Below, in pieces: positions 61,836 to 64,000 of a stretch of 64,000 bases of DNA. Where the stretch lies: assembly GCF_056712565.1 (NCBI RefSeq), contig NZ_CM160072.1. One strand, 5' to 3'. How positions within the stretch are numbered: the first letter of the stretch is position 1; each line of letters starts with the position of its first letter. The position numbers were made by a program.

Positions 61836-64000
61836 TTATATTGGCGTTTTCTATTCAGTATAGAAGTGGGAGCGGCCGGGTGAGATGCGGAAGTTCTGGA
61901 ATGTTTCTTTTTTTTGGCGATGGTGAACTGATGGTGACTGAAGCAATTTGGCTACTTTTGCAATATGACCAGTTGCGTTATAGCTGGCTGGCGGCGAAGA
62001 ATTTTGACGATTGAGGCATGCAGAAAAAAACGGGTTCAGCTTCAGTTGATTAAATGAGGAGTGAGAAGTCCGAAACAGGACTCACTGTATAAATAAACAG
62101 TTATTTTGCTAAGGAAGGGTAAGATAACTGCGGGTGCCTGAAGCTTTCCGGTTTCAGGTTTACTCTGAGGTCTGGAAAGATGAAGCCCCAGGACGATATT
62201 TCTATCAACCCTGGGGCTACCTACCCAAACCTGAACAATTTGGATGGTAGTCCCTTCTTCGCATGGAGGCAATATAAACATGCTGACGAAATATGCCCTT
62301 GTGGCAGTCATAGTGCTGTGTTTAACGGTGCTGGGATTTACGCTTCTGGTCGGAGACTCGCTGTGTGAGTTTACCGTAAAGGAACGTAATATTGAGTTTA
62401 AGGCTGTTCTCGCTTACGAACCGAAGAAGTAGCCGTTGTGCGGGGAGCAATCCCCGCATATCCGGTTGTCAGGTCAGGGTGGTAAGGCACCTGCTTTACA
62501 CTTTCGCCCGCGGTCAGTGATGGCTGCGGGCGAATCGTACCAGATGTTGTCAATTAATCGTGTTGGCACAGCGTTATGACTATTTTTTCTTTTATCTGCC
62601 AGTGCACAGCAAACTGCTCATCCTCTAGTCGAATGATGATCTGCTGTTTATTCCAGCTAATTATCTGATAATCCAGAAAACCTTGAGCGGCCTGTATCTC
62701 ACTTGCCTTAAATGCGCTCTCTTTGGCGGAAAATGCCAGTGTCAGCGCCAGAGGAAAGGCTAAACCGCAGTCTGCAAGTCGCTTGTGTTCCGCTGGTGTA
62801 ATAATGTTGTCTGTCAATTCTCTTGCGGTTTGTGCAGAGAAAATCTCTTCAATATCAATGCCAATTGGTTGACGGGAAACCACGGCTAATGCCGTAGTCC
62901 CACAGTGACTAATGCTGCCGTATACCCCCGCAGGCCACACAGGTTGGCGTAGCTCGCCGATTGCAGGCACACATTTATAGCCATATTCCCGCAGCGCATA
63001 AATTGCAGCGATCCGCCCGGCTAAATGCTCTGTTTTACGTTTACGTCCAGCGTGTTGAAGTTGTGCGTAGTGCGGCAGCCAGAGTAAATCCTGCTCGCGA
63101 AAACTCGCCGGATCAAACTCAACAAAATGCAGCGTATGTCCGGCAAAGGGGAGGGAGGTATGCGTAGTTTTCATGTCAACCATATTAGAGAATGATGACA
63201 AACGCAAAACTGCCTGATGCGCTACGCTTATCAGGCCTACGTGGTCCTGCAATATATTGAATTGGCAAGATTTTTGTAGGCCGGATAAGGCGTTCACGCC
63301 GCATCCGGCATGAACTACGCGCACTTTGTCAACAATCTGACGTTAGCTTCAGAAGTGAGTATTAATGCTCATATACCACGTACGTCCCGGCTCGTTATAG
63401 GTATACGCCCCGGCACCTGCGATATAGTTGGCTCCTGCCAGATCGCCCGTGGTCTGGGCATTACCCGCACGCCACAAACGTTTGTCGAACAGGTTGTCCA
63501 CGCCGCCGGTCAGACTGACATTCTTGGTCACATCCCAGGTCGCGCTCAGGCCAACAATGCTGTACGGACTGATTTCTTTGGTTTCCGGTCCAACCGCTGG
63601 CTGACCTTTATAGTTGTACTTCTTCGGCTGCTGTTTGCCGTACTAGGTGAAGGTCGTTTGCATCGACAAATCTTCCCGTGCCTGCCAGCTCAGCGTTGAG
63701 TTCAACGTATACTCCGGGATGATCGACAAACGGTCGCCCGTGGTTTTGTTTTCACTCTTCAGCATATAAGTGATGTTATTGGTCCACATCACCGTTTCGC
63801 TAACCGGTACGTTTAACGATCCTTCCAGACCTTCAACCACCGCTTTCGGTACGTTATCCCACTGATAGAGATCGGTGCCGACTGCGTTTTGCCCTACAGC
63901 CACATAGCCCGCTTCAATCTTATTGCGATAATCGTTACGGAACCAGGTCACGCCCGCCAGCCAGCCGTCGCGTTTGAACTCCAGACCAATCTCCTTGTTG

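Follow-up and report, generated by a model that had tools for sequence, protein, structure and literature searches.

The uninterrupted hokE/sokE locus between ybdK and entD in a phylogroup-B2 Escherichia coli

Judged by its sequence, the spacer between ybdK and entD in the analysed stretch of DNA (64,000 nucleotides, below called the window) holds the hokE/sokE locus known from E. coli in its ordinary form, free of interruptions; this locus combines a small toxin with an antisense RNA. We put at about 85% the probability that an E. coli of phylogroup B2, similar to ST95, here carries one complete wild-type copy of this type I toxin-antitoxin locus. As hokE/sokE is already named and annotated, the locus is not novel and finding it has little discovery value in itself.

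Identity and gene content of the locus

The spacer is 727 bp long, and the longest ORF inside it has at most 89 codons. A complete 50-aa Hok ORF had been claimed here from the sequence alone, and it is borne out by the ORF listing, by a match to the Pfam family PF01848 HOK_GEF (E = 2.2e-8, 34 bits, cut-off 22) and by the annotation of identical DNA in UTI89. Matches of the same ORF to the NCBIfam Hok models are below the model cut-offs. RefSeq places WP_000956465.1, "toxin HokE", on DNA identical to the window locus, and the identity to hokE-annotated DNA of UTI89, S88, APEC O1 and the E. coli type strain (ATCC 11775) is 100%. The flanking genes ybdK and entD, the RefSeq name hokE and the agreement with K-12 HokE at 49 of 50 residues (V8 in the window, A8 in K-12) identify the gene as the hokE orthologue. 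The range initially given for the locus, 62130-62550, stands as that of the predicted full-length hok mRNA (about 62131-62535), and the hok reading frame itself starts with the ATG at 62280 and ends at 62432. The genes, transcripts and control sites are the following.

60708-61826 (-): ybdK, from the UTI89 annotation of identical DNA
62085-62100 (+): LexA (SOS) box CTGTATAAATAAACAG, found by its core pattern, overlapping the -35 region of the hok promoter
62120-62125 (+): inferred -10 element TAAGAT of the hok promoter, its spacing conserved in other genera
62131-62535 (+): predicted hokE mRNA in full length, its 5' end inferred from the Rfam start and its 3' end placed at the close of the terminator hairpin (fold)
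62176-62236 (-): putative SokE antisense RNA, about 60 nt, with a 5' tail, a hairpin and a U-rich tail, by alignment to K-12 sokE (b4835)
62180-62368 (+): candidate mokE leader ORF of 62 aa in the +1 frame, which runs over the hok start, from the ORF listing
62244-62272 (-): putative sok promoter in the R1-type position, with -35 TTGCCT (62272-62267), a 17-nt spacer and -10 TACCAT (62249-62244)
62265-62269 (+): hok Shine-Dalgarno sequence GGAGG, unchanged in every aligned locus and overlapped by the sok -35 of the minus strand
62280-62432 (+): hokE coding sequence, 50-aa membrane toxin, from Pfam HOK_GEF and the RefSeq protein on identical DNA
62415-62418 (+): TadA editing motif TACG at codon 46, Tyr to Cys if A62416 is edited, identical in all loci compared
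62554-63174 (-): entD, from the UTI89 annotation of identical DNA

Loci for comparison with other genera came from a degenerate pattern scan of genome contigs. The scan yielded mostly chance matches, and among the matches listed six Enterobacteriaceae loci were usable: E. albertii, two Citrobacter, two Phytobacter and Pluralibacter. Against these loci and against other E. coli copies, dN/dS of Hok is estimated at 0.1-0.26, the C-terminal part of the estimate being biased because KAVLAYEP was required in the scan; these estimates show Hok to be under purifying selection. The HokE coding sequence was among the previously characterised controls shown to be toxic in an assay in which only three uncharacterised sequences were non-toxic, and Hok of the window strain is probably toxic as well. 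Editing at position 46 has been reported for the K-12 hokE mRNA, at a level of 40%.

The insertion site in K-12 and across E. coli

The sequence-only reading held that neither IS186 nor any other insertion interrupts the locus, and the alignment agrees: the window is colinear with the K-12 spacer once the 1345-bp IS186B is removed from the latter. In K-12 MG1655, hokE/sokE (b4415, b4835) likewise lies between ybdK and entD. Unlike the window, it carries IS186B inside the 3'-UTR stem-loop, 10 bp past the hokE stop codon and flanked by an 11-bp target duplication, GGGAGTAATCC. This target is present in the window at 62443-62453, also inside the 3'-UTR hairpin, and is empty; there is no insertion sequence either at this site or at ~62208, where other strains carry IS150. 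In K-12, the element splits the 3' stem-loop and moves the fbi segment and the terminator 1.3 kb downstream. Because the site is empty in the window, the 5' end of the transcript (62130-62139) is able to pair with 62485-62494.

The two loci share the leader, sok promoter, LexA box, 3' stem-loop, fbi segment and terminal hairpin, with a few point differences in the promoter and SokE regions. In addition, K-12 lacks one C (window 62194), and therefore its upstream ATG shares the hok frame and opens an 83-aa ORF, as opposed to the 62-aa overlapping ORF of the window. The premise that several chromosomal hok loci of K-12 are inactivated by insertions agrees with a passage in PMC12214031, which says, citing Pedersen & Gerdes 1999, that hokA, hokC and hokE are presumed to have lost their activity through insertion elements.

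About two thirds of sequenced E. coli have hokE uninterrupted (3591 of 5426 complete genomes); IS186 is found in hokE of about one third of the genomes, some of which also have IS150. The uninterrupted form is the majority state and K-12 the deviant one, and the locus is unusual only beside K-12. IS-free hok loci of natural E. coli were reportedly described in 1999. Work on K-12 hokE concerns the IS186-disrupted allele, and roughly a third of sequenced genomes share its break, while ExPEC and APEC strains like that of the window have the complete locus. Since the K-12 allele is disrupted and theirs is complete, strains of the ExPEC/APEC type are the better choice for studying SOS induction, TadA editing, persistence and the identity of mok.

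Strains of O157:H7, B1 and environmental origin carry tandem hokE arrays built from the same unit, with about 470 bp of homology, a 503-bp period and the same elements. These arrays contain two or three copies, and the window has one, which combines the upstream flank of the first copy of an array with the downstream flank of the last.

Leader, antisense RNA and predicted folds

The Rfam model RF01794 matches the window at 62132-62288 (+) over its full length (1-157) with 86.2 bits (gathering score 59, E = 4e-19), and this is the sole such match in the 64 kb; by this score, the hok-type leader is not a chance match. The minimum free energy (MFE) of the predicted hokE mRNA is -182.8 kcal/mol, with z = -8.4 relative to shuffled sequences.

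To compare the locus with R1 hok/sok (parB), we used an IncFII locus of the R1 type instead of R1 itself; there is an indel difference in its leader, and its Hok is identical to the query sequence that we take to be R1 Hok. Similar to R1 and related IncF plasmids, the window encodes a Hok/Gef toxin, matches the same leader covariance model, has a 5'-3' fold-back pairing and a post-stop stem-loop followed by fbi and then by the terminal hairpin, and carries an antisense promoter at the homologous position, overlapping the hok Shine-Dalgarno sequence. Unlike R1, the locus is a chromosomal single copy with no plasmid context and has an upstream LexA box, Tyr46 in a TACG context and a terminator that lacks a U tract. 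The 5'-3' helix also differs in sequence, being GCGGGUGCCU/AGGCACCUGC in the window and GGCGCUU/AAGCGCC in R1. The mechanism and elements of R1 hok/sok, including the analogue of the stem-loop at 62438-62459, are known from the literature.

The predicted RNA elements, all on the plus strand, are as follows.

62130-62139 (+): tac-like 5' segment GCGGGUGCCU, pairing with fbi in the MFE, centroid and RNAalifold consensus folds
62136-62159 (+): alternative 5' hairpin, metastable or activating, which excludes hairpin I; a prediction only
62144-62179 (+): leader hairpin I, which sequesters GAGG (62167-62170) just before the candidate mok ATG; from folds
62184-62218 (+): leader hairpin II, CCCC (62186-62189) with GGGG (62213-62216); from the Rfam alignment and folds
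62438-62459 (+): 3'-UTR stem-loop GGGG-AGCAAT-CCCC, the IS186 site in K-12; from folds and the K-12 target duplication
62485-62494 (+): fbi-like 3' segment AGGCACCUGC, pairing with the 5' end; from folds, downstream of IS186B in K-12
62504-62535 (+): terminal G+C-rich hairpin, the presumed terminator; from folds

The sequence-only reading suggested that this copy may retain its regulatory architecture, and this was upheld. Both sok hexamers, the hok Shine-Dalgarno sequence, the upstream ATG, the tac and fbi segments and the TadA motif are intact and invariant in 12 E. coli hokE units, and the alignment of these units revealed no mutation disrupting the mok start, the sok promoter or the mRNA elements. 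The sok promoter, whose mapping had been proposed, could be placed through the aligned leader at the position of the R1-type promoter. Its -35 is kept across five genera, and its score of 8/12 is below the threshold of the generic scan. The SokE hairpin has a predicted energy of -33.1 kcal/mol (z = -6.2), and SokE is fully complementary to the candidate mok ATG and the first 19 codons. The locus thus appears to encode a Sok RNA in cis, with its own putative promoter and with complementarity to the start of the leader ORF.

In the generic consensus scan, the sok and hok promoters score at most 8/12, and neither of them nor the terminator was called; therefore, the assignments of promoters and terminator rest on homology and conservation. 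For the hok promoter, a TA..AT hexamer (TAGAAT/TAGGAT) is found at an equal distance from CGGGTGC in the hokE-like loci of Citrobacter, Phytobacter and Pluralibacter. This promoter is probably weak, as it has no good -35. After the terminal hairpin, the window has AUCGUACC instead of a U tract, while the upstream copies of tandem arrays carry a U-rich tail, GCGGGCGAUUUCGUUUUA. The missing U tract and the silence of the generic scans count against our best explanation of the locus.

The LexA box is the sole CTGT-N8-ACAG match within the window. The same sequence precedes each of the 11 E. coli hokE units for which upstream DNA was compared and is present in E. albertii, too; the two Phytobacter loci have similar boxes. 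A search of the window with the 20-mer LexA consensus, allowing up to 3 mismatches, gave no match, as the box has 4 mismatches outside the core. In the literature, hokE is listed as a LexA-box gene with a heterology index of 4.9, and in the window strain it may be under SOS control. A 2024 SOS study in which AZT did not induce hokE of K-12 also counts against the best explanation.

The 10-bp helix between the 5' and 3' segments is predicted by all three folding procedures, and its core of 6 bp is paired in 7/7 sequences from five genera. Covariation in the helix is limited to G-C/G-U changes because it is invariant within E. coli. In the alignment of the seven sequences, 86.8% of cells are paired, compared with 29-53% in slid controls, and six pairs are changed on both sides. 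Compensatory changes across genera affect four pairs of hairpin I and two pairs of the 3'-UTR stem-loop, which is likely to form the protective 3' end of the processed mRNA in our model. Hairpin II is the counterpart of the R1 hairpin of ucb and the mok Shine-Dalgarno sequence, and its opposite strand would form the SokE stem.

Removal of the 3' end is predicted to change the leader. The GAGG before the candidate mok ATG has an unpaired probability of 0.03-0.09 in the full-length RNA, and three of four in-silico truncations make it more accessible (0.24-0.68), which weakly favours 3' processing to an active mRNA. The alternative hairpin at 62136-62159 is the MFE structure of the nascent RNA and of three of the four 3'-truncated RNAs. 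An R1-style tac/ucb helix was sought in the truncated RNA and rejected, since it is absent from the MFE folds, which vary with the chosen 3' end; this, too, counts against the best explanation.

Proposed working, the leader ORF and alternative readings

By homology with R1 hok/sok, the locus may work as follows. A weak promoter overlapped by the LexA box would yield a hok mRNA of roughly 400 nt, in which pairing of 62130-62139 with 62485-62494 would close the leader fold and hide the ribosome-binding region of the leader ORF. Slow 3' trimming to the stem-loop at 62438-62459 would remove the 3' partner and let the leader refold. Ribosomes translating the leader ORF (candidate mok, ATG 62180) could then reach the hok start region and allow the synthesis of Hok, the 50-aa inner-membrane toxin, whose toxicity is probably tuned by TadA editing of Tyr46 to Cys. 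The unstable, constitutive SokE (62236 to about 62176) would block this by pairing with the start of the leader ORF and, by analogy, would also trigger cleavage by RNase III.

The overlapping Mok frame of the sequence-only reading does exist as an ORF; its identity as mok, however, is that of a candidate, as the ATG is not R1-homologous and the frame varies. The ATG is at +49, between hairpins I and II and 100 nt before hok (1 mod 3), while in R1 mok starts 58 nt before hok, after hairpin II; the relative frame is the same. The 62-aa product has no protein-family match and is not among the called proteins of a 15-billion-protein collection, so no annotation could be transferred to it, and a word search for sokE/mokE gave unrelated matches only. 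All 13 E. coli units and E. albertii have the upstream ATG, and Phytobacter has GTG instead. Whichever its frame, the ORF is open through the hok start in 11 of the 13 units.

Three forms of this ORF occur. The 62-aa overlapping form of the window, in the +1 frame relative to hok, is marked by a diagnostic 41-mer present in 2734/5426 genomes. In the K-12 type the ORF is in frame and yields an 83-aa, N-terminally extended Hok, which is seen in K-12, the entD-proximal O157 copy and E. albertii. In O157 copy 1 it is truncated to 22 aa and stops before the hok Shine-Dalgarno sequence. The 1-nt indel at 62194 falls in the internal loop of hairpin II. We tentatively propose, while holding it rather improbable, that the mok start of hokE is the conserved AUG at +49, before hairpin II, and that its frame has been repeatedly reset by 1-nt indels in and near this hairpin among lineages and tandem copies. 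If so, toxin translation, both its occurrence and its mode, would vary among natural hokE alleles, and the B2 allele of the window would be the one wired like R1. The polymorphic frame, together with a copy number from one to three, provides natural variants for testing the coupling between hok and the leader ORF.

The same variation bears on a doubtful alternative, in which the ORF at 62180-62368 is not mok and Hok translation is controlled differently: either directly, with SokE acting only via RNase III decay, or via the short in-frame ATG 62244 or a non-AUG start after hairpin II. It would account for an ATG that lies off the R1-homologous site, for the shifting frame and for the homologues in Citrobacter FP75 and Pluralibacter, which lack the upstream ATG and have short ORFs starting nearer to hok; these features count against our best explanation, and the authors of a 2026 preprint consider that Mok cannot be reliably assigned by sequence. 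On the other hand, the conservation of the ATG in every Escherichia unit and the openness of the ORF through the hok start speak for the candidate, as do an R1-like plasmid locus with the same in-frame variant, the coverage of ATG 62180 by SokE and the GAGG 9 nt before it, which the folds predict to be more exposed once the 3' end is truncated.

It is also possible, though we consider it unlikely, that the locus is structurally intact and physiologically silent, being transcribed and processed and never producing enough Hok, as a tolerated remnant of plasmid-type addiction kept mainly by the difficulty of loss. According to the summary of Pedersen & Gerdes 1999 given in a preprint, intact chromosomal hokA, hokB and hokC produced no post-segregational killing, plasmid stabilisation or rifampicin response, and these reports, too, count against the best explanation. 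The tolerance of IS186, and in some genomes IS150, in hokE, the drift of the leader-ORF frame down to the 22-aa version and the non-canonical terminator tail point the same way. Against silence stand the purifying selection on Hok, the invariance of all regulatory elements across E. coli copies, several of them kept across genera with compensatory changes in the hairpins, the conservation of the LexA box and the TACG codon, and the tandem duplication of hokE in many lineages, with both copies retained. A complete wild-type hokE/sokE locus remains our preferred reading. We regard as highly improbable, and rejected, the reading that the main product is an 89-aa minus-strand protein (62042-62311, WP_002430445.1) and the hok features are secondary. 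In UTI89 and numerous further genomes, RefSeq has a hypothetical protein at this ORF; however, it has no match in Pfam or NCBIfam and is flagged as frameshifted, partial or having an internal stop in strains with the common 1-nt indel. Its frame runs across both promoters, sok and hok, and SokE, and is open because these are conserved.

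The hokE/sokE locus and its insertion state

The 727-bp spacer between ybdK and entD carries hokE/sokE, a known, annotated type I toxin-antitoxin locus in its common wild-type form, and its identification is correct.

Features of the spacer and its borders
60708-61826, minus strand: ybdK, left border
62085-62100, plus strand: LexA box CTGTATAAATAAACAG, overlapping the -35 region; sole core match in the window
62120-62125, plus strand: putative hok promoter -10, TAAGAT
62180-62368, plus strand: candidate mok ORF, 62 aa, ATG start, overlapping the hok start
About 62236-62176, minus strand: SokE antisense RNA, mapped from the K-12 sokE annotation
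62272-62244, minus strand: sok promoter, TTGCCT / 17-nt spacer / TACCAT, at the R1-homologous position
62280-62432, plus strand: Hok/Gef toxin gene hokE, 50 aa, the only Hok/Gef gene in the spacer
62415-62418, plus strand: TadA editing motif, codon 46 TAC followed by G; Tyr to Cys if edited
62554-63174, minus strand: entD, right border

The sequence-only reading had described a 50-aa Hok ORF free of IS elements at this place. The product matches Pfam HOK_GEF (E = 2.2e-8), and the hok leader matches Rfam RF01794 over 157 nt ending just within hok (86 bits; gathering score 59), the only such match across 64 kb. The spacer contains no transposase and no ORF longer than 89 aa. Together with the ORF overlapping hok, these results confirm the observation. 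In UTI89, S88, APEC O1, IHE3034, and the E. coli type strain ATCC 11775, 731 bp around hokE are 100 % identical, and the RefSeq annotation has hokE at the identical position.

We also considered as a real gene the 89-aa minus-strand ORF at 62042-62311 (RefSeq hypothetical protein WP_002430445.1), antisense to the hok leader. It has no family match and is flagged as frameshifted or partial in strains with a common 1-nt indel; most likely, it is an annotation artefact over sokE and both promoters.

In MG1655, IS186B (1345 bp) is inserted 10 bp past the hokE stop codon, with an 11-bp duplication, GGGAGTAATCC, on its two sides. The duplicated bases equal window positions 62443-62453, within a stem-loop (62438-62459) that is rich in G+C and has the pattern GGGG-N6-CCCC. 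This pattern is reportedly the consensus IS186 target. The K-12 insertion destroys the 3' stem-loop and shifts the downstream 3' elements 1.3 kb off, whereas the site in the window is empty.

A 446-bp query spanning promoter to terminator (62100-62545) was compared with 5426 complete genomes, and 3591 of them contained a contiguous match (at least 80 %). Uninterrupted hokE is therefore the majority state, with K-12 belonging to a large minority. In most remaining genomes the match breaks at 62454, and in the examples inspected (loci L004, L005, and L006) an IS186/IS421 transposase lies at the 3'-UTR stem-loop site used in K-12, a state shared by about a third of complete genomes. Of these IS186-carrying examples, one has IS150 as well, in the hok leader near 62208, and the hokE-IS186 unit is duplicated in strain 88COLEC. 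The window has a single hokE/sokE unit, but in many E. coli the ybdK-entD interval is occupied by a tandem array of two or three (503-bp period), whose copies differ in the frame of the leader ORF; the arrays of O157:H7 F8798, VCSW7, 2009C-3133, and OkiPb01695 (loci L013-L016) correspond to window 62065-62535. Such tandem units have already been reported as hok "islets" (2026 preprint).

RNA fold, promoters, and toxin maintenance

The predicted full-length hok RNA (62132-62545) is strongly structured (MFE -182.8 kcal/mol, z = -8.4). Positions 62130-62139 (GCGGGUGCCU) are predicted to pair with 62485-62494 (AGGCACCUGC) in a 5'-3' fold-back helix, found in the MFE and centroid folds as well as in the RNAalifold consensus for 12 hokE units of E. 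coli. Its counterpart in R1 is the tac/fbi fold-back, and ViennaRNA recovers the version of an R1-type plasmid locus too. In a cross-genus alignment of seven sequences from E. coli, E. albertii, Citrobacter, Phytobacter, and Pluralibacter, with helices specified by the analyst, 86.8 % of cells were paired, as opposed to 29-53 % with slid partners. The six pairs at the core of the 5'-3' helix are kept in all seven sequences; of six two-sided pair changes in the alignment, four fall in leader hairpin I (62144-62179) and two in the stem-loop of the 3' UTR. After the terminal hairpin (62504-62535), the presumed terminator, the window has AUCGUACC instead of the U-rich tail seen in the upstream copies, and only those, of tandem arrays.

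SokE is predicted to fold into a strong hairpin (z = -6.2) between a 5' tail and a U-rich tail, and its promoter overlaps the hok Shine-Dalgarno sequence of the opposite strand. The putative hok -10 rests on a TA..AT hexamer that keeps its spacing to the 5' end in four further genera. Both sok hexamers are invariant in 12/12 E. coli units. The earlier suggestion that the regulatory architecture is retained is supported: the sequence-only reading had named point mutations in the candidate mok start, the sok promoter, or the fold-back elements as grounds for rejecting it, and none was found.

Two layers on which the sequence-only reading was silent are the LexA box and the TadA editing motif. 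Every E. coli unit for which upstream DNA was compared keeps the box, as does E. albertii, and Phytobacter has similar boxes at hokE-like loci. hokE has been listed as a LexA-box gene with a heterology index of 4.9; in a 2024 study, AZT gave no induction of K-12 hokE. Editing at codon 46 has been reported at 40 % in K-12 hokE mRNA, recoding Tyr to Cys.

Comparison of the window Hok with other E. coli copies and with E. albertii, Citrobacter, Pluralibacter, and Phytobacter yielded dN/dS of 0.1-0.26, eight C-terminal residues being fixed by the search pattern. A recent preprint describing an overexpression assay counts the HokE coding sequence among its previously characterised toxic controls, and the non-toxic sequences are three uncharacterised ones only. 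The intact chromosomal loci hokA, hokB, and hokC reportedly show no post-segregational killing; thus, intact architecture is no guarantee of a killing phenotype.

The leader ORF as a candidate mok

The claim of an overlapping Mok frame stands in part. The 62-aa ORF does overlap the hok start, and its offset to hok (100 nt, compared with 58 nt for R1 mok) is likewise 1 mod 3, meaning the same relative frame; as mok, it is a candidate, and its position, its shifting frame, and the state of the start codon in other genera complicate the assignment. In R1, the mok start follows hairpin II, whereas ATG 62180 sits at +49 between hairpins I and II (the latter at 62184-62218), a position that is non-coding in the R1 model. 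This ATG is invariant in Escherichia; Phytobacter has a GTG instead, and Citrobacter FP75 and Pluralibacter lack the start. Among hokE copies, the frame is shifted by 1-nt indels.

Leader-ORF frames by offset to hok
Offset 100: 62-aa overlapping ORF; window type
Offset 99: 83-aa in-frame Hok extension; K-12, entD-proximal copies of tandem arrays, E. albertii
Offset 98: 22-aa ORF, stopping before the hok SD; O157 copy 1

By diagnostic 40-/41-mers, the window-type frame is present in 2734 genomes and the deletion type in 4197, many having both. Several observations speak for a role of the ORF. Whichever the frame, it is open through the hok start in 11/13 units. In the R1-type plasmid locus L003 (IncFII pMTY1886, 544-759), the mok ATG likewise shares the hok frame, at an offset of 57 nt, giving a 71-aa fusion ORF, while in R1 itself mok is out of frame at 58 nt, so 1-nt indels switch the mok frame in plasmid loci too.

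SokE covers ATG 62180. In the full-length fold, hairpin I sequesters the GAGG located 9 nt upstream, whose accessibility rises in three of four truncated folds. According to the published view, translation of mok matters and its product does not; we infer that an ORF open in any frame, the SokE cover, and the predicted release of GAGG fit this view. The modest residual value of the hokE locus lies in the natural variation of its leader ORF and copy number.

The surrounding window

Two positions in the 4.7 kb compared separate the window from UTI89. One is in fepA (63349 to beyond 64000, minus strand), where a C-to-T change at 63644 turns TGG (Trp) into an in-frame amber TAG at 63643-63645; fepA, which encodes the enterobactin receptor, is thus probably a pseudogene. 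The other is 60661 in the ybdJ-ybdK intergenic region (T, G in UTI89). The amber allele occurs in 19 of the 5426 complete genomes, including APEC O1, ExPEC XM, and other O1:K1:H7-like strains; the matched feature in them is labelled simply fepA. Near-identity to UTI89 and the amber shared with APEC O1 indicate an ST95-like B2 strain.

The entD-fepA gap (63233-63315) contains REP/BIME-like palindromes, with an Rfam ES036 match above the gathering score (42.2 bits) and a partial naRNA4 match below threshold. Elsewhere, at 22819-22885 and 38018-38091 (both plus strand), gathering-level Rfam matches to the enterobacterial sRNA STnc480 and a tRNA were found, unrelated to hokE.
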